Shown: one piece after another, positions 7,803 through 18,381 of the stretch
Layout of the letters: the number at the start of each line of letters is the position of its first letter
Position numbering within the stretch: the first letter of the stretch is position 1
Virus record (IMG/VR): IMGVR_UViG_2740892270_000008
From: a virus
Taxonomy: Duplodnaviria; Heunggongvirae; Uroviricota; Caudoviricetes
DNA: 26,692 nucleotides
Strand: one strand, 5' to 3'
Notes under the pieces: generated by a model
Told to the model about the DNA's origin: nothing
Seen by the model: only the letters and a program-made list of their open reading frames with translations
Database searches by the model: none
Program-made: the position numbers and the translations under genes

Positions 7803-8354
7803 ATGATGAAATTACAACCCATGGGACTAAAAGGTCGCGCCCCCGCTCATGTCCGTCCGTGGACACCTGAAGAAGATGCGCTGCTGATTGCGCTTTATTC
7901 ATCCACCCCGGTTAAGGATATTGCTGCCAGAATAAAAAGAACTGTCTGGGCTGTATATAACCGGACTGGTGTATTGCGCAGTTCATACCCGGAGTTACTG
8001 AAATATAAACACCCAAGATTTACACCTGATGAAGATAAGTTTATTCGAAAAAATGCCAGAACAATGACCTGCCAGCAAATGGGAGAATATCTCGGACGTA
8101 ATAAAGATTCTGTCAGATGTCGGGCAGGAATGATTGGTGCTGGATTAACAAAGTGCGGAGAGTTACGCCCCGGCACGCGCATATCTGATGATGATGTACG
8201 TCTTATACGTGAGCTGCGTGATTCCGATTACCCACGCCGTCTGTCATTCCGGGAAATTGGCGAAAAGTTTGGAATATCTGAACATTCTGCTCACGCAGTT
8301 TATTACCGTCGCCGGACTGCCGAGGACGCTGTATTACGGGAGTTAACGCCATGA
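7803..8354 (+). CDS. Putative DNA-binding protein with three tandem HTH (Myb/SANT-like) repeats
   Basis: 183 aa; three ~45-aa repeats each beginning (T/S)P-(E/D)-ED: WTPEEDALLIALY...IAARIKRTVWAVYNR / FTPDEDKFIRKN...MGEYLGRNKDSVRCR / ISDDDVRLIREL...IGEKFGISEHSAHAVYYRR; SD AGGGGG 6 nt upstream. Confidence 0.55.
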   Translation: MMKLQPMGLKGRAPAHVRPWTPEEDALLIALYSSTPVKDIAARIKRTVWAVYNRTGVLRSSYPELLKYKHPRFTPDEDKFIRKNARTMTCQQMGEYLGRNKDSVRCRAGMIGAGLTKCGELRPGTRISDDDVRLIRELRDSDYPRRLSFREIGEKFGISEHSAHAVYYRRRTAEDAVLRELTP

Positions 8355-8683
8355 TAACGACCTTATTTGTTGAATCAGATGAACCTCTTGTGTGTGCCGC
8401 CGGAATGCCGCTCTGTGGCGGAACGCTGACCGGCGTTTATTTCGGGGATTTGCGCGGTTATCCCTGGCATTCACTGGATGACGCATTTCCGCCTGATATG
8501 GAGGCTGTCGTGCTGATTGTTCAGTATGGTGACCAACAGGAACTGCGCATCGGCCATATGGGGTATGAAGGCTTTTTTATTGATGAAGAAACCGGAGCCT
8601 GCCTTGAAGATGAGGACGGACAGGTGACGCACTGGTGCCATCTTTCGGCCTTGCCGGAATTACAGGGGATACATAATGGATGA
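8351..8683 (+). CDS. Hypothetical protein
   Basis: 110-aa ORF, ATGA-coupled to preceding gene; acidic. Confidence 0.45.
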   Translation: MITTLFVESDEPLVCAAGMPLCGGTLTGVYFGDLRGYPWHSLDDAFPPDMEAVVLIVQYGDQQELRIGHMGYEGFFIDEETGACLEDEDGQVTHWCHLSALPELQGIHNG

Positions 8684-8819
8684 GCAAATTGTTGAATGTC
8701 CCACCTGTGGAAATGAGGACCCGGAGTATCTGAAAGAGTGCCCACATTGTGGTGAGATAAAATGTAACCACTGCGATATGGGCGACGACACTGCATGTAT
8801 AAATTGTGAGGATGAATAA
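8676..8819 (+). CDS. Small zinc-ribbon protein with four CxxC motifs (not in ORF track)
   Basis: Manually translated: MDEQIVECPTCGNEDPEYLKECPHCGEIKCNHCDMGDDTACINCEDE (47 aa); CPTC, CPHC, CNHC, CINC; start overlaps upstream gene end, stop abuts next gene start. Confidence 0.5.
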   Translation: MDEQIVECPTCGNEDPEYLKECPHCGEIKCNHCDMGDDTACINCEDE

Positions 8820-8820
8820 T

Positions 8821-9108
8821 ATGGAAAAAGAAATCAAATTTGCGCCTAAATCTATCGACGAAGAACTGGCTAAAATCGGCATGCTTGAACGTATGCGGGA
8901 CATTATCGAATATGCGATAAAAGAAAATCTTGCAGCCAGAGAAGCCCTTTTGATAATGGAGCGGGAGATTAACCTGATTAAGGATGCTGTATCTCTGGAT
9001 AATAAAATAGCCCGCGAGGAATACGTTCGCCGTAGGCTCGGTGTTGATGGTTCAGCAATTCTTACATCTGAACATTATGCAAAAATTTTTAATCTTTTTC
9101 AGCGGTAA
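8821..9108 (+). CDS. Hypothetical protein, AT-rich moron-like gene
   Basis: ATG 8821 (MEKEIKFAPKS...) with GAGGA upstream; roughly 40% GC versus ~55% in flanking phage genes (eyeball estimate). Confidence 0.5.
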   Translation: MEKEIKFAPKSIDEELAKIGMLERMRDIIEYAIKENLAAREALLIMEREINLIKDAVSLDNKIAREEYVRRRLGVDGSAILTSEHYAKIFNLFQR

Positions 9109-9328
9109 TCCCCATACAGGCCCGGAGATTGTCGAAATGCCAGTCGGTATTAATATATGAGCCATCCTGGATATCTTCTGCATTTTCCGGGGTAGAGTTT
9201 TTTTGAGCGAGATTGATAATATGTATTGCCTCCTCACGGGAAATCAGCCCCTTATCGAACAGGGTTACCATAAGATTTCCAGCCATTGTGAATGCGGCAA
9301 CATCAAGTGCATTTTTTATATCTGACAT
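9089..9328 (-). CDS. Hypothetical protein on the opposite strand (moron-like), convergent with the upstream gene
   Basis: 79-aa minus-strand ORF; start codon at 9326-9328 with AAGGA ~9 nt upstream on minus strand; 3' end overlaps the convergent gene by 20 bp; lower GC. Confidence 0.45.
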   Translation of the reverse strand: MSDIKNALDVAAFTMAGNLMVTLFDKGLISREEAIHIINLAQKNSTPENAEDIQDGSYINTDWHFDNLRACMGITAEKD

Positions 9329-9356: not shown

Positions 9357-9386
9357 GGCGGTGCGGTAACACCGCCCATTTTTTAT
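9357..9386 (+). terminator. Putative intrinsic terminator (GC hairpin plus T-run)
   Basis: GGCGGTG-CGGTAA-CACCGCC perfect 7-bp stem followed by CATTTTTTAT; lies between the minus-strand moron and gemA. Confidence 0.5.
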
Positions 9387-9398
9387 GGAGCCACGATA

Positions 9399-9701
9399 AT
9401 GAATCGCGCTTCCCTGATTACCTTAATACATGTCGCAAAACGCGATCTACAGCTTGACCATGATACCTATACATCCGCGCTGCTGGCAGCCACCGGCAAA
9501 TCCAGTTGCCGTGATATGTCACCCGGTGAGTTATCCCGCGTGCTGGATGTTTTCAAAAAACGCGGTTTTAAAGTGCGTCAGAAGCCGGTTAACCGGGCCT
9601 TAAAACCGGGTACGGTGACCGCCAAAATTCGCGCCATCTGGAAAGTGATGCACCGGCAGGGATTTATCTCTGATGGCGGGGAAACGGCCCTTAACCGCTG
9701 G
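9399..9701 (+). CDS. gemA: GemA-like protein (Mu gp16 family), C-terminus inside N-masked block
   Basis: MNRASLITLIHVAKRDLQLDHDTYTSALLAATGKSSCRDMSPGELSRVLDVFKKRGF matches Mu GemA N-terminus as recalled; runs into mask 9702-9953. Confidence 0.75.
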
Positions 9702-9972
9702 NNNNNNNNNNNNNNNNNNNNNNNNNNNNNNNNNNNNNNNNNNNNNNNNNNNNNNNNNNNNNNNNNNNNNNNNNNNNNNNNNNNNNNNNNNNNNNNNNNN
9801 NNNNNNNNNNNNNNNNNNNNNNNNNNNNNNNNNNNNNNNNNNNNNNNNNNNNNNNNNNNNNNNNNNNNNNNNNNNNNNNNNNNNNNNNNNNNNNNNNNNN
9901 NNNNNNNNNNNNNNNNNNNNNNNNNNNNNNNNNNNNNNNNNNNNNNNNNNNNNATGATGACCGGAGGCGGGT

Positions 9973-10224
9973 ATGGCTGAAACACAGATGAGCATGTTTG
10001 GTGACAGCGAACAGCTGCACGCGCTGATTGACCGTCTGGATGATATTCCTGATGATGAGCTGAAAAAGAACTGGCCCGGCACGCTGCGGGACCTGGTTGA
10101 TGTGATCAGTGCTGAACTGCACCGTCAGGGGATTGAACCTGCTCAGGCGGGAATGCTTGCCCGTAAGGTTGCAGCCGCACAGGCCGGGTACATGGGCGGG
10201 CGTGGTTATTATCTCCCGGTCGGT
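9973..10224 (+). CDS. mor: Mor/C-family transcriptional activator (middle operon regulator-like), C-terminus inside N-masked block
   Basis: N-terminal MFGDSEQL... and ...LARKVAAAQAGYMGGRGYYLPVG resemble Mu Mor (...ICKHLGGGQVYIPRG) as recalled; SD GGAGG 5 nt upstream; HTH region expected within mask 10225-10405. Confidence 0.65.
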
Positions 10225-10405
10225 NNNNNNNNNNNNNNNNNNNNNNNNNNNNNNNNNNNNNNNNNNNNNNNNNNNNNNNNNNNNNNNNNNNNNNNNNNNN
10301 NNNNNNNNNNNNNNNNNNNNNNNNNNNNNNNNNNNNNNNNNNNNNNNNNNNNNNNNNNNNNNNNNNNNNNNNNNNNNNNNNNNNNNNNNNNNNNNNNNNN
10401 NNNNN

Positions 10406-10895
10406 CCCCGCACCCCTGCGTAAAAAGCTGATTGCCCTTGTTCTGGCCGGAGCCGGGACGTTCACCATTGCCACGCACTACACCGGCTACTGGGAAGGGA
10501 AAGAAAACACCACGTACATTGATCCCACCGGCACCCCCACCATCTGTTACGGCCATACCGGCCCGGATGTGAAACCGGGGATGACAAAAACTGATGAAGA
10601 GTGTCTGGAGCTGCTGGAAAAGGACATGAAATGGGCCTTTGCGGCTATCGATCGTCATGTTCAGGTGCCGCTTACCCGTGGTCAGACGGTGGCGCTGGCC
10701 TCCTGGATTTTCTGGGCCGGTGAAACGAACTTTCGCAACTCCACGCTCCTGCGCCTTATCAATGCCGGGCAGATGCCCGCGTCCTGTAAGCAGTATATCC
10801 GCTGGATTTATTCAAAGGGGGTAAAACTCCCCGGTCTTGAGGCCCGCCGTTCGGCGGATGAATGGTTATGTCGTTACGATTTGCCGAAAGTCTGA
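10406..10895 (+). CDS. Endolysin, GH24 (T4-type) lysozyme with probable N-terminal SAR domain; N-terminus inside N-masked block
   Basis: Frame open from the mask: ...LRKKLIALVLAGAGTFTIATHYTGYWEGKENTTYIDPTGTPTICYGHTG... (catalytic E in YWEG, TICYGHT motif); weakly hydrophobic Gly/Ala-rich segment before the catalytic domain suggests SAR-type secretion. Confidence 0.8.
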
Positions 10896-13216: not shown

Positions 13217-14880
13217 TGAACAAAGCCAGAGAAACGTCGCCTTCACTGATGCAAATGACGCCTCCCCGCAAAATTGATCTGTCAGGTGAAAAAGCCCTGC
13301 TGGGCGTGGATGTGCCGGACAGCCTTGATTTGCCCGGTGATATGCCGGTGTTTCTGGATTATCAGGCCCGCTGGTTTGCAGATGAAAGTCAGGTCTGCAT
13401 CGCGGAGAAATCCCGCCGCACCGGTCTTACCTGGGCGGAAGCCGGGCGTAACGTCATTACTGCTGCAAAACCGAAGCGTCGTGGTGGCCGCAATGTGTTT
13501 TATGTGGGATCAAAGCAGGAGATGGCGCTGGAATATATTTCTGCCTGCGCGCTGTTCTCCCGTGCCTTTAACCAGCTGGCAGATGCTGATGTGTATGAGC
13601 AGACATTCTGGGATCGGGATAAAAAAGAAGAAATTTTGACCTACATGATCCGCTTTCCGAACAGTGGATTCAAAATTCAGGCATTGTCTTCCCGTCCGTC
13701 AAACCTGCGCGGCCTTCAGGGGGATGTGGTGATTGATGAAGCCGCGTTCCACGAGTCACTGGATGAGCTTCTCAAGGCGGCAATGGCGCTCACTATGTGG
13801 GGCGCGCGCGTGCGTATTATCTCCACGCATAACGGCGTCGATAATCTGTTTAATCAGTACATTCAGGAAGCCCGCGAGGGGCGCAAGGATTACAGCGTCC
13901 ACCGCATAACCCTGGATGATGCCATTGCGGACGGGCTGTACCGTCGTATCTGTTACGTCACCGATCAGGAATGGTCACCGGAAAGCGAGCAGAAATGGCG
14001 TGATGATCTCTACAAAAACGCCCCGACCCGTGAGGATGCCGACGAGGAATACGGCTGTATCCCGAAAAAATCCGGCGGTGCCTATATCCCCCACGCGCTT
14101 ATTGAAATGGCGATGATCCGCGACATCCCGATTCTGACGTTTGAAGCCCCGGACAACTTCATCAGCCGTGCCGCATGGCTGCGTGAATCGGAAGTTTTAA
14201 CCTGGTGTGAAGAACATTTAAAACCGCTTTTAGAGAAATTAAATCCCCGTTCCCGCTTCAGCTTCGGGGAAGACTTTGCCCGCACCGGTGACCTGTCCTG
14301 CTTTGTGCTGCTGGAAATCACCGAATCCCTGGCAAAGCGCGAGGTGTTTCGCGTGGAGCTGCGCAACCTGCCGTATGCCCAGCAGGAACAGGTGATGATG
14401 TACATCCTGACCCGCGTTCCGGCGCTGGTCGGTGCGGCGTTCGACGCCACCGGTAACGGCGGCTATCTGGCAGAGGCCGCACTGCTGGCCTTTGGCCCGG
14501 ACATCATCGACTGCGTGATGTTGTCGCCGAAGTGGTACGGCGAGTGGATGCCAAAACTGAAAGCCGAGTTTGAAGATCAGAATATCCTCGTCGCCCGCCA
14601 TCAGACCACGCTTGATGATTTGCGCCATGTGAAGGTAGTGAATGGTATCCCGCAAATCGACAAGGGGCGCACGAAGGACCAGAACGCAACGGCTGCGAAC
14701 GCCCGCCGCCATGGTGATTTTGCCGTGGCGCTCTGTATGGCAAACCGGGCGTCATACATGGAGGGCTTCATCCTGGATGAATCAGCCTGTCAGGCGCTAC
14801 AGGAGCGGTCGCGGGCAATGGAGGGCGGTTATCGTGATGACGATGAGGCATATCATGAATTTGATCGGGGGGGCTGGTAG
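13213..14880 (+). CDS. Terminase large subunit (Mu gp28-like)
   Basis: 555 aa; ATPase-like VVIDEAAFHE (Walker B) and C-terminal nuclease region; position before portal. Confidence 0.85.
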   Translation: MMNKARETSPSLMQMTPPRKIDLSGEKALLGVDVPDSLDLPGDMPVFLDYQARWFADESQVCIAEKSRRTGLTWAEAGRNVITAAKPKRRGGRNVFYVGSKQEMALEYISACALFSRAFNQLADADVYEQTFWDRDKKEEILTYMIRFPNSGFKIQALSSRPSNLRGLQGDVVIDEAAFHESLDELLKAAMALTMWGARVRIISTHNGVDNLFNQYIQEAREGRKDYSVHRITLDDAIADGLYRRICYVTDQEWSPESEQKWRDDLYKNAPTREDADEEYGCIPKKSGGAYIPHALIEMAMIRDIPILTFEAPDNFISRAAWLRESEVLTWCEEHLKPLLEKLNPRSRFSFGEDFARTGDLSCFVLLEITESLAKREVFRVELRNLPYAQQEQVMMYILTRVPALVGAAFDATGNGGYLAEAALLAFGPDIIDCVMLSPKWYGEWMPKLKAEFEDQNILVARHQTTLDDLRHVKVVNGIPQIDKGRTKDQNATAANARRHGDFAVALCMANRASYMEGFILDESACQALQERSRAMEGGYRDDDEAYHEFDRGGW

Positions 14881-16306
14881 TGGGACGCATCATTGATACT
14901 GACGGAAAACCTTTCTCCTTTGACCCGGAGATGCAGAGTGCCGCGCTGGATATTCCGCAGATTGCCAGCCGTTATATTGAACATCCGGCTTCGGGTATCA
15001 CCCCGAACCGGGCGGCGCAGTGCCTTCGCGGGGCTGAACGTGGCGATCTGATTGCCCAGTCCGATCTGGCCGCTGATATTGAAGAAAAGGACACCCACCT
15101 TTTTGCGGAGCTGGGCAAGCGACGTCTTGCCATTCAGGGGGTGCCATGGAGTATTGAGCCGCCACCGAACGCCAGCGCGAATGAGAAAAAGGACGCGGAA
15201 ATGCTCGACGAATATCTGCATTCCGCAGACTGGTTTGATGCCATGCTGTTTGACGCCACGGATGCCATCCTGAAGGGCTATTCCTGCATGGAAATTGAGC
15301 ACGGGATGCTCGGTAAAATGCACATCATCCGCGCCATCCGCTGGCGTGACAGCGGGCATTTCTGCCTTAACCCGGATGATTTGAGCGAACTGCGGCTGCG
15401 TGACGGCAGCCATGCCGGGGTGGCGTTTCAGCCCTTTGGCTGGATAGTGCATCAGTCGCGTTCACGCACCGGCTACGGTGGTGCGACGGGGCTTGTCAGA
15501 ACGCTTATCTGGCCGTTCATTTTCAAAAACTATTCCGTGCGCGATCTGGCGGAATTTCTGGAGGTGTACGGCCTGCCAATGAAGGTCGGGAAATACCCGT
15601 CCGGGGCAACACCGGAGCAGAAAAGTGCCCTGATGCGGGCGGTGATGGATATCGGGCGACGTACAGGCGGGATCATCCCGGCCGGGATGTCGCTGGAGTT
15701 TCAGGCGGCAGCGAACGGTCAGGCCGATCCGTTTGAAACCATGATTTCGTGGGGTGAGCGTTCCATCTCCAAAGCAATACTCGGCGGCACGCTGACCACA
15801 GAAGCCGGAGACAAAGGCGCGCGCTCGCTGGGTGAGGTGCATAACGAGGTGCGCCGGGAAATCAGGGATTCTGATTTACGCCAGCTGGCTGCAACCCTGA
15901 ACCGCGATCTGGTGTATCCGCTGTATGCCCTGAACACCGCCCACGCCATTGATATCCGTCGCCTGCCGCGTATCTGTTTCCAGACCAAAGAACCGGGGGA
16001 TATCACCAAAATAGCCAGTGCGGTGATGCAACTCAGTGCGGGGATGGATATTCCTGATCCCTGGGTACGGGATCAGACCGGTATTCCACAGCCCACGCCC
16101 GGTGAAGCCATATTCCGTGTCCGTCAGAGCAGTAATGAACCGGCCATGCCTGACAGGGAAACGCTACCGGAAAAACAGGAAAAGACAGAACAGACGGCGC
16201 TTTCAGCCCGACTGCCGGAAGCGAAAAACACGCCGCGTGATGAACTGGACGACATGGGGGACGCGGTGCCTGCCCGCCGCTTACAGGAGGCCATCGATCC
16301 GGTGCT
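14880..16306 (+). CDS. Portal protein (Mu gp29-like, DUF935 family); C-terminus inside N-masked block
   Basis: GTG start overlapping TerL stop (TAGTG); 475 visible aa; track fuses it with F across the mask into a 969-aa ORF, which is an artefact of X translation. Confidence 0.8.
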
Positions 16307-16556
16307 NNNNNNNNNNNNNNNNNNNNNNNNNNNNNNNNNNNNNNNNNNNNNNNNNNNNNNNNNNNNNNNNNNNNNNNNNNNNNNNNNNNNNNNNNNNNNN
16401 NNNNNNNNNNNNNNNNNNNNNNNNNNNNNNNNNNNNNNNNNNNNNNNNNNNNNNNNNNNNNNNNNNNNNNNNNNNNNNNNNNNNNNNNNNNNNNNNNNNN
16501 NNNNNNNNNNNNNNNNNNNNNNNNNNNNNNNNNNNNNNNNNNNNNNNNNNNNNNNN

Positions 16557-17789
16557 TTCGAAACAGACGCGGATGTTCATGCCCGCTCATTCACGGCAGC
16601 AAAAACGGCACGGCTGGATGTGGTAACCACATTACAGGCCGAAGTGCAGCGGGCCATTGATGAGGGGATTTCACAGAAAGAATTTATCCGCACACTGACG
16701 CCACGCCTGCAAAAGCTGGGATGGTGGGGAAAGCAGATTGTGGTGGACAGCGACGGTAACGCGGAAGAAGTGCAGCAGGGCAGTCCCCGTCGTCTGGCGC
16801 TGATTTACAACGTGAACACCCGTGTGGCTTACAATGCCGGGCGTTACACGCAGATGATGAACAACACGGACACGCATCCGTTCTGGCAGTATGTGGCGGT
16901 CATGGACAGCCGTACCCGCCCGTCGCATTCCGCCCTTAACGGTCTGGTATTCCGCTATGACGATCCGTTCTGGAAAACACACTACCCGCCCAATGGCTGG
17001 AACTGCCGCTGCCGTGTGCGGCCATTGTCTCAGGCCCGTCTGGATGCAATGGGGTTATCCGTTTCATCCGGTGAGGATCATCTCTCCACCCGCAATGTTG
17101 AGGCTGGCGTGGATAAACAGACCGGAGAAGTCAGAGAAATGCCGGTGACCACATATTCAGATGGCGCCAGAACCATGACACCGGATGTGGGCTGGTCATA
17201 TAACCCCGGCTCGGCAGCGTTCGGCACAGACCAGGCGCTGATCCGCAAACTGATCGAGGTGAAAAGCCCGGCGTTACGGGAAATGGTGGTTCAGGAGATG
17301 AACAACAGCCCGGAGCGGCAGCTGGCGTTCCGCATCTGGGCAAAAAACATCATGCAGACCCGGCGAGGTGGTAACGATATCCGCACGCTGGGCTTTATGA
17401 CTGAAAGCATTGCGCAGGCAGTGGAAAGCCGGACGGGAACGCCACCGGCCCGCCTGCTGGCGATGAGCGGTAAAAATGTGCTCCATGCGGACAGTGTGAA
17501 ACATCAGAATGACGGCATCGCTCTGACGCCGGAGGACTTCGGGCGCTTACCGGCAATGCTGGCAAGGCCAAAAGCGGTACTGTGGGACAAACGGCACAAC
17601 AATCTGATGTATATCGTGGAAAATCAGGATGGCAGTGTGCAGATTGCCGTTAATGCACCGTACAGTCTGAAACGTCAGCCCGACAAACTGGATGTGATTG
17701 TGAATGCTTACCGGGTTATCAATATGGATAAGCTGAAATCGGATATCCGGGGCGGAATGCTTGAGGTGCTGGAAGGACAAATTGATTAA
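16557..17789 (+). CDS. Head morphogenesis protein F (MuF family); N-terminus inside N-masked block
   Basis: MuF-domain core ...IYNVNTRVAYNAGRYTQMMN...FWQYVAVMDSRTRPSHSALNGLVF...NGWNCRCRVRP; about 250 aa of C-terminal sequence follows the core. Confidence 0.8.
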   Translation, partial: FETDADVHARSFTAAKTARLDVVTTLQAEVQRAIDEGISQKEFIRTLTPRLQKLGWWGKQIVVDSDGNAEEVQQGSPRRLALIYNVNTRVAYNAGRYTQMMNNTDTHPFWQYVAVMDSRTRPSHSALNGLVFRYDDPFWKTHYPPNGWNCRCRVRPLSQARLDAMGLSVSSGEDHLSTRNVEAGVDKQTGEVREMPVTTYSDGARTMTPDVGWSYNPGSAAFGTDQALIRKLIEVKSPALREMVVQEMNNSPERQLAFRIWAKNIMQTRRGGNDIRTLGFMTESIAQAVESRTGTPPARLLAMSGKNVLHADSVKHQNDGIALTPEDFGRLPAMLARPKAVLWDKRHNNLMYIVENQDGSVQIAVNAPYSLKRQPDKLDVIVNAYRVINMDKLKSDIRGGMLEVLEGQID

Positions 17790-17872
17790 CGGTCAGTGGC
17801 GGGGGTCGAACCCGCATACATGATCCACCCGGAGGCAGGCACCGACTTTACCAGTTAAGCGTACACTGACCG
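17790..17872 (-). other. tRNA-like structured element (T-arm-like hairpin inside a 9-bp terminal inverted repeat); not a canonical tRNA
   Basis: Minus-strand reading: CGGTCAGTG...GCGGG-TTCGACC-CCCGC-CACTGACCG; ends pair perfectly over 9 bp; GCGGG/CCCGC stem with TTCGA-containing 7-nt loop mimics a tRNA T-arm; no convincing anticodon arm found by hand. Confidence 0.3.
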
Positions 17873-17910
17873 CCTGTTTATTTTATATTCATCCTTTATG
17901 CGGAGGCAAT

Positions 17911-18381
17911 ATGTCATCCATTGATGCAGCTGTCGTTGTTGACGTTACGCGTCTCCAGCGAGTGTTTGCCCGGCTTCAGTTTGTGGGCGGCGGAAAAGAC
18001 CTGGCCCGCNNNNNNNNNNNNNNNNNNNNNNNNNNNNNNNNNNNNNNNNNNNNNNNNNNNNNNNNNNNNNNNNNNNNNNNNNNNNNNNNNNNNNNNNNNN
18101 NNNNNNNNNNNNNNNNNNNNNNNNNNNNNNNNNNNNNNNNNNNNNNNNNNNNNNNNNNNNNNNNNNNNNNNNNNNNNNNNNNNNNNNNNNNNNNNNNNNN
18201 NNNNNNNNNNNNNNNNNNNNNNNNNNNNNNNNNNNNNNNNNNNNNNNNNNNNNNNNNNNGTATGCCACCGGGACCGGCGGCCATTGGCGCACGTCCGTAT
18301 ATGGGCTTTGATCAGGTGGCAGAACAGGAGATCATGGACGAAATCAGAAAACGCTTTAAAAAGGCCACAGAAACGCCGTAA
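17911..18381 (+). CDS. Virion morphogenesis protein G-like (Mu gp31-like); middle masked
   Basis: ORF stays in frame across the 249-nt mask (83 codons), giving 156 aa, which matches the size of Mu G as recalled; SD GGAGG upstream. Confidence 0.6.
   Translation: MSSIDAAVVVDVTRLQRVFARLQFVGGGKDLARXXXXXXXXXXXXXXXXXXXXXXXXXXXXXXXXXXXXXXXXXXXXXXXXXXXXXXXXXXXXXXXXXXXXXXXXXXXXXXXXXXXXMPPGPAAIGARPYMGFDQVAEQEIMDEIRKRFKKATETP

Follow-up and report, generated by a model that had tools for sequence, protein, structure and literature searches.

The 47-aa open reading frame at 8676-8819 of the window, i.e. of the whole 26,692-nt stretch of viral DNA analysed here, is almost certainly a genuine protein-coding gene and a homologue of gp13 (E14) of phage Mu. 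A profile match, a direct match with Mu gp13, the eight-cysteine signature of the family and a location in the early operon were all found for it. Its novelty is low, as it is a shorter form of a family that has been catalogued in Mu for decades. In a preliminary description of the same DNA the frame had been singled out as an unannotated zinc-ribbon gene, and both the frame and its four CxxC motifs are present as described there. The term unannotated is correct for the RefSeq genomes that are 100 % and 95 % identical to the window, in which PGAP leaves the short form without annotation (gaps at L004 9334-9470 and L006 2834-2970), and this omission is the reason why the ORF looked new. It is not correct for the family, since Mu gp13/E14 and many of its homologues are annotated as hypothetical proteins.

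Reading frame and relationship to Mu gp13

The ORF begins with an ATG at 8676 and ends with a TAA at 8817-8819, and it encodes the peptide MDEQIVECPTCGNEDPEYLKECPHCGEIKCNHCDMGDDTACINCEDE (47 aa), in which four CxxC pairs are formed by C8/C11, C22/C25, C30/C33 and C41/C44 (Table 1). The product is very acidic, with 14 acidic against 2 basic residues, a net charge of about -12 and a pI of about 4. Its start overlaps by 8 nt with the upstream ORF, the TGA of which is at 8681-8683, and the ATG of the downstream gene, at 8821, follows 1 nt past the stop. The preliminary description had pointed to this tight packing, and similar arrangements, with 4- or 8-nt overlaps or direct abutment, were indeed seen in unrelated phages as well. 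No promoter- or terminator-like site was found between the ORF and its neighbouring genes. In view of this and of the tight packing, translation of the ORF most probably takes place on the early transcript and is coupled to that of the upstream gene.

It is the sole ORF of at least 30 aa with three or more CxxC pairs within the window. As a control for chance, ORFs of up to 80 aa from 200 random windows (first-order Markov) were scored for CxxC pairs. None of these ORFs had four or more pairs, and those with at least three occurred on average 0.01 times per window. As the 200 random windows yielded no comparable ORF, a chance origin of the 47-aa ORF is excluded.

When the 47-aa product was used as a tblastn query, Mu, D108, SfMu and Yersinia Mu-like phages matched it over residues 7-47 with 88 % identity (87.8 % and E=7e-17 for Mu, NC_000929). 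The same residues matched positions 20-60 of the PHROG 5584 profile (phrog_5584, E=3.1e-26), a group that carries the label 'unknown function'. The Mu counterpart is Mup13 (NP_050617.1), annotated as 'gp13; previously called E14' and present as a CDS since the left-end record M64097 of 1991. Across the whole Cys8 module 36 of 41 residues are identical between the two proteins. The stop/start junction with gp14 (GAATAATATG, TAA-T-ATG) is also kept in Mu, and both genes occupy the same early-operon slot, between gp12 and gp14/gemA/mor. They differ in length, 60 aa in Mu compared to 47 aa in the window, and in the N-terminus, which has 19 residues in Mu and reads MDEQIV in the window protein, because here gp12 and the module are separated by two extra genes. 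The nucleotide homology with Mu begins exactly at codon 7 (GAA TGY CC) and continues through TAA-T-ATG. Following the two-gene insertion, the window thus encodes the bare module with a new six-residue N-terminus. No functional study of Mu gp13/Mup13/E14, of PHROG 5584 or of any other member of the family was found in the literature.

Table 1 Features of the 47-aa reading frame and its immediate surroundings (positions in the window)
Feature	Position	Strand	Basis or remark
SANT/Myb-like gene, 'D5-like transcriptional regulator', phrog_323	7803..8354		Inserted relative to Mu
Upstream 110-aa gene, phrog_6925, weak DUF551 likeness	8351..8683	+	Inserted relative to Mu
Shine-Dalgarno-like GGGGA, 6 nt 5' of the ATG	8665..8669	+	Putative; read from the sequence
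CDS, 47 aa + stop, Mu gp13 (E14) homologue, Cys8 mini-protein	8676..8819	+	ORF list, tblastn, PHROG
8-nt overlap ATGGATGA of the start codon with the end of the upstream gene	8676..8683	+	Candidate translational-coupling junction
CxxC knuckle 1 (C8-P-T-C11), followed by conserved G12	8697..8708	+	120-cluster alignment
CxxC knuckle 2 (C22-P-H-C25), turn of predicted beta-hairpin	8739..8750	+	Alignment and AlphaFold2
K29 and CxxC knuckle 3 (C30-N-H-C33)	8760..8774	+	120-cluster alignment
Acidic loop D34-M-G-D-D38, family signature, candidate interaction surface	8775..8789	+	Alignment; putative function
CxxC knuckle 4 (C41-I-N-C44), followed by acidic tail E-D-E	8796..8807	+	120-cluster alignment
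TAA stop, 1 nt, ATG of next gene; junction GAATAATATG	8817..8823	+	Sequence, alignment with Mu
Downstream 95-aa gene, Mu gp14 homologue (49 % identity)	8821..9108	+	PHROG 6075

Evidence for coding

Selection on the ORF is strongly purifying. In the comparison with Mu over a 37-codon core there were 14.5 synonymous and 5.5 non-synonymous differences, corresponding to a dN/dS of about 0.03, and across 32 distinct nucleotide versions the all-pairs pN/pS was 0.23. Each of the eight cysteine codons occurs among the versions both as TGC and as TGT. The earlier opinion that the frame is a real gene is borne out by this selection, and also by the homologous family described below.

The alternative is that the frame is not a gene, i.e. 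that it is a chance ORF, or that its conservation is imposed by an overlapping gene on the antisense strand. The ORF is indeed smaller than the usual cut-offs and is skipped by PGAP, old Mu records gave a reverse-strand ORF, 'E-82', at the position of gp13, the 47-aa ORF is overlapped on the other strand by ORFs of 91 and 108 aa, and one of the antisense frames is free of stops in 32 of the 34 variants compared. We still give this explanation practically no chance. Among the 34 variants the substitutions concentrate at the third positions of the + frame, where all 37 columns are variable, compared to 23 and 22 of 37 at the first and second positions, and in none of them is the + frame interrupted by a stop, in line with its low dN/dS. 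Homologues with less than 50 % protein identity hold all eight cysteines in many genera, the random expectation of such an ORF is close to zero, and 'E-82' is missing from the current Mu reference record. As the codon-position statistics favour the + frame, the antisense-gene explanation was rejected.

A few decayed copies were seen, as is expected in prophages. P0009 is frameshifted, with loss of knuckle 1, P0048 is truncated after knuckle 1, and P0073 is a deletion that joins the N-terminus of the SANT/Myb gene to the last two knuckles. All three are metagenome and assembly clusters.

Family and signature

A full HMM scan of 1.8 billion representatives returned 157 representative proteins at E<1e-3, and a profile search of 90 % clusters returned at least 308 clusters. 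The complete fourfold CxxC pattern was present in 85 retrieved sequences, most of which are less than 50 % identical to one another. Leaving aside a few stray source labels, the named ones among the 308 clusters are called hypothetical proteins, and Pfam domains are practically absent from the clusters. No family member examined reached a Pfam gathering threshold, no NCBIfam model for the family was found, and a sequence search of the PDB gave no solved relative, only generic zinc ribbons below the threshold. The members come from phages of Gamma- and Betaproteobacteria, with Enterobacteriaceae, Thauera, Rubrivivax, Hydrogenophaga, Methylovulum and Thiotrichales among the hosts or sources, and others, and 70 viral contigs of IMG/VR contain a member.

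In an alignment of 120 protein clusters, each of the eight cysteines is kept in 118 to 120 clusters. In syntenic Mu-like prophages, too, the cysteines are conserved and the frame is intact, and the ORF thereby withstood the refutation test that the preliminary description had set. C22, C25, K29, C30, C33, D34, G36, C41 and C44 are invariant (120/120 each). By our figure C8 (118/120), C11 (119/120), G12 (118/120), M35 (118/120), D37 (117/120) and D38 (116/120) are conserved in at least 97 % of the clusters, and P23 of knuckle 2 is found in 113 of the 120 (94 %). The signature of the family can be written as E-C-x2-C-G-x(8-38)-C-P-x-C-x3-K-C-x2-C-D-M-G-D-D-[VT]-x-C-x2-C, followed by an acidic tail. 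Length variation in the module is confined to the loop between knuckles 1 and 2.

The module is either free-standing or fused to the C-terminus of various longer proteins that are unrelated to one another. In L019-L022 a 252-aa ORF (phrog_6418), the N-terminal part of which resembles phrog_2510, ends with the module in frame. This ORF takes the place of gp12 (L019 5368..6126, similarly in L020-L022), and the Met of Mu gp13 is altered in these sequences, which have VGENSYSW where Mu has MENNETSYSW. As clues to function the fusion partners were uninformative, both for the N-terminal domains of phrog_6418/2510, P0012, P0013, P0024, P0026 and P0036 and for those of the longer members P0047, P0049 and P0059. 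The N-terminal domain of P0023 is a borderline match with Phage_ProQ_C_like (26.6 bits, cut-off 27).

Genomic setting

The window is a Mu-like prophage of E. coli. Over the 758 nt tested (8351-9108) it is 100 % identical to E. coli strain HH35, in which the region is annotated with a repressor, transposase A/B, gam, gemA (gp16 family), mor, lysozyme and head genes. The gp12 of the window shares 55 % identity with Mu gp12. The two genes inserted relative to Mu lie between gp12 and gp13 and are the SANT/Myb-like and the DUF551-like gene of Table 1. E. coli genomes with the DUF551-like gene number 144, and in only 14 of these does the 47-aa form adjoin it.

In Mu-like elements gp13 is always situated between gam/gp11/gp12 and gemA/mor, and the immediate neighbours vary. 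In many cases gp14 is adjacent, but L027, for example, has gemA directly after the gp13-family gene. In L059 the gp13-family gene comes immediately after gam. The most widely shared neighbour is gemA, present in 8 of 27 sequence groups. Clustering of the neighbours revealed no universal neighbour gene across the 27 groups, and as none is conserved in all contexts, no partner can be named.

The family is also found outside Mu-like elements. Klebsiella phage Kpn BU9, a 60-kb phage that is not Mu-like, encodes a 50-aa homologue (L005 4001..4153) with 55 % identity and all eight cysteines. It is located in the replication module, between a 264-aa protein and a DUF2800/PD-(D/E)XK exonuclease, and its start and stop abut the neighbouring genes. 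In a lambdoid-type prophage the homologue is beside an Rv2179c-like 3'-5' exonuclease near xis/int, and other non-Mu neighbours are ORFs that, from their sequences, read as DNA polymerase- and helicase-like.

The genes of the early region of Mu have been described as 'semi-essential', with functions that are largely unknown (PMC3820752). Based on this, on the presence of a homologue in 49 of 5426 complete E. coli genomes, on the variable flanks and on the decayed copies, the gp13-family gene is most likely a dispensable early accessory gene.

Some further observations were made on the surroundings of the gene. A reverse-strand ORF of 78 aa (9089..9328, -; phrog_32893) converges on the gp14 homologue with a 20-nt overlap and lies inside the otherwise rightward early operon, at the place of Mu gp15. 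It was considered as a gp15 homologue and rejected, as it has no similarity to Mu gp15, and it is therefore only a positional analogue. Between this ORF and gemA, just 5' of the latter, there is a G+C-rich hairpin followed by a T run (9357..9376, +), which is terminator-like and could end or attenuate transcription in either direction. The window holds 1438 masked N bases, with long stretches within gemA and mor (e.g. 9399..10431). Several ORFs listed around 9399..10431, as well as a 969-aa ORF at 14880..17789, may be artefacts of the masking. The RefSeq annotation of HH35 has a 'tRNA-OTHER' (L004 18517..18596, -) between a minor head protein and a virion morphogenesis gene, at approximately 17870..17950 of the window; ARAGORN detected no tRNA anywhere in the window.

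Predicted fold and metal binding

The AlphaFold2 model obtained with 120 sequences had a pLDDT of 84.7 and contained a beta-hairpin, with strands 19-21 and 28-30, that bears knuckle 2. With 10 close homologues only, the model was poor (pLDDT 59). No significant fold match was obtained for the model. The top Foldseek matches, all of them non-significant, were the cross-braced two-zinc domains FYVE, PHD and AN1.

The eight cysteines probably bind metal, and the metal would most likely be two Zn2+ with a structural role. The probable pairing is that knuckles 1 and 2 make up a classical zinc ribbon with a variable loop and that knuckles 3 and 4 form a second, tight site. This pairing is suggested by the first half of the protein, which resembles zinc ribbons in alignments below the threshold (RadA N-terminus, L32 and L40e), and by the proteins with repeated zinc ribbons, which match only the region of knuckles 1 and 2. 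Since the top non-significant Foldseek matches are cross-braced, such a sequential pairing is insecure. The two zinc sites expected in the preliminary description are a sensible prediction.

The designation zinc ribbon, given to the protein in the preliminary description, can be retained only in part. When compared with Pfam Zn_Ribbon_1, DZR and Zn_ribbon_LapB, with the N-terminal zinc finger of RadA and with the ribosomal proteins L32 and L40e, knuckles 1 and 2 (CxxCG-x10-CPxCG) do align with the classical C4 zinc ribbons, and knuckle 2 is placed on the predicted hairpin. Knuckles 3 and 4, KCxxCDMGDDxxCxxC, in contrast have no counterpart in these proteins. The Pfam scores also remained below the cut-offs (in brackets): 16.8 bits for Zn_ribbon_LapB (25.7), 14.9 bits for DZR (27.3) and 13.0 bits for Zn_Ribbon_1 (25). 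The name thus describes a sub-threshold resemblance, and no significant fold match accompanies it.

Two other proteins with four CxxC motifs may be compared with the window protein. The cysteine-rich domain of DnaJ has four CxxCxGxG repeats and two zinc centres, with longer spacings. Two Cys4 sites in a small domain are likewise expected for the window protein, but its motifs (CPTCGNE, CPHCGEI, CNHCDMG and CINCEDE) are without GxG, and the spacings between its CxxC pairs, 10, 4 and 7 residues, are shorter than those of DnaJ. The Pfam profile DnaJ_CXXCXGXG gave no match up to E=1. HVO_2753 of Haloferax volcanii (59 aa, PDB 6YDH, PF07754) is of similar size, has four CxxC knuckles and is likewise predicted to have two zinc pockets; it is an archaeal, cellular protein, whereas gp13 is a phage protein. 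The window protein had no match with PF07754, and its relative P0167 reached E=0.43 and 10.8 bits (cut-off 33.2). The four C(P)XCG motifs of HVO_2753 hold a single zinc, and its empty pocket was wrongly predicted by AlphaFold2 (PMC11241148). As it binds only one zinc, HVO_2753 is a warning rather than a model for gp13.

A redox protein or a protein with a metal other than zinc would be a different outcome, e.g. a rubredoxin-like iron site, a thiol-disulfide switch or a metal-buffering peptide. CxxC pairs serve also as the iron ligands of rubredoxins and as the active sites of thiol oxidoreductases, and weak matches of rubredoxin type were obtained for the window protein: Zn_ribbon_LapB, described as 'rubredoxin metal binding domain' (E=0.005), rubrerythrin and nigerythrin. 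These matches are all below the threshold and limited to knuckles 1 and 2. From its sequence the 47-aa protein is without the aromatic core residues that are typical of rubredoxins, and its context as an early accessory phage gene gives no hint of redox chemistry. We therefore regard a redox or non-zinc role as very unlikely, even though a metal other than zinc, or no metal at all, is bound by some micro-proteins with C(P)XCG motifs (PMC11241148).

Discussion

The reading that we find on balance probable is that gp13 is a dispensable early accessory protein, a compact, metal-stabilised and acidic Cys8 module that binds a protein partner. Metal at the cysteines would fold the 40 residues into a rigid knob, and the DMGDD loop together with the acidic tail would offer the contact surface for the partner. 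In its free-standing form the module may serve as an adaptor for, or inhibit, a protein of the host or of the phage that takes part in DNA transactions, and in the fused form it may be a C-terminal appendage on other phage proteins. Three properties make a protein-binding role appear the most likely one: a size that leaves no room for an enzyme, a charge too negative for a nucleic-acid binder, and the domain fusions, in which the module forms the C-terminal part of unrelated proteins, as would be expected of a portable element for protein interaction.

A particular case of such protein binding would be the inhibition of host defence by nucleic-acid mimicry, in which the rigid, acidic zinc knob would imitate the charge of the DNA phosphate and block a DNA-binding enzyme of the host, be it a restriction, RecBCD-like or other immune nuclease, as small acidic inhibitors from phages do. 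The net charge of about -12 in only 47 aa and the pI of about 4 are in agreement with this, as are the location of the Mu-like copies in the early accessory region next to gam (directly after it in L059), the vicinity of exonuclease and replication genes in other phages, and a mosaic spread over Mu-like, lambdoid-type and lytic-type genomes of the kind that counter-defence genes often show. We nevertheless consider it unlikely. The protein resembles none of the known anti-defence proteins and carries no annotation of this kind, from PADLOC or elsewhere, and neither the ORF nor its five neighbours matched any PADLOC-DB family at E up to 0.1. Moreover, 47 aa is small for a DNA mimic, and the motif is invariant across distant hosts, whereas an arms race would predict rapid diversification.

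Still less probable, in our opinion, is a regulator that binds DNA or mRNA and tunes early or middle expression, comparable to Mu Com, P2 Ogr or the TraR/DksA-type zinc fingers. Small Cys4 zinc fingers of phages are often regulators, Mu Com being a translational activator, and the gene is located just 5' of the regulators gemA and mor, with gemA as its most frequent conserved neighbour. The module is also present in phages without gemA/mor, and its composition, with 2 basic against 14 acidic residues, the DMGDD loop and the acidic tail, is the opposite of a nucleic-acid-binding surface. The phage proteins Mu Com, P2 Ogr and Rac Lar share with gp13 a small size and a framework of CxxC pairs. 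As far as is known, they are basic or neutral and bind nucleic acids or proteins, and they have one Cys4 site, in contrast to the Cys8 and strongly acidic gp13. No significant similarity was found between the window protein and Com, Ogr or Lar. The Com, Ogr/Delta and TraR/DksA families of Pfam gave no match even at E up to 1, and Lar (PF14354) matched only faintly (E=0.43, 11.3 bits, cut-off 28.6).

To return to the protein-binding module, a more far-reaching and rather doubtful version of it would be that the Cys8 'KCxxCDMGDD' element is a portable, hitherto undescribed phage zinc domain that docks onto a single factor conserved among gamma- and betaproteobacterial hosts. If this were true, gp13 would be a host-takeover or counter-defence effector common to Mu-like, lambdoid-type and lytic phages. 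The docking target could then be e.g. a component of DNA repair, of replication or an immune nuclease, approached by the module either free or fused to effectors.

A 47-codon gene under strong purifying selection, from a family of hundreds of clusters, goes missing without notice in automated annotation by PGAP; the Mu version of the gene has been listed for decades. The short form merits annotation as a Mu gp13-family protein, and the family merits a profile model, for which the eight cysteines, the invariant lysine, the DMGDD loop and the acidic tail provide the signature. With a size of about 5 kDa the protein is within easy reach of NMR and of peptide synthesis, and it is thereby a tractable target for learning the role of one of the 'semi-essential' early genes of Mu. 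The gains are modest, and existing knowledge is not overturned.

Mu gp6 (L002 515..745) is likewise a small cysteine-rich early protein (KCPGCGEQ...CCPWC) and gave a weak tblastn match, which suggests that the early region of Mu encodes more than one small putative zinc protein.
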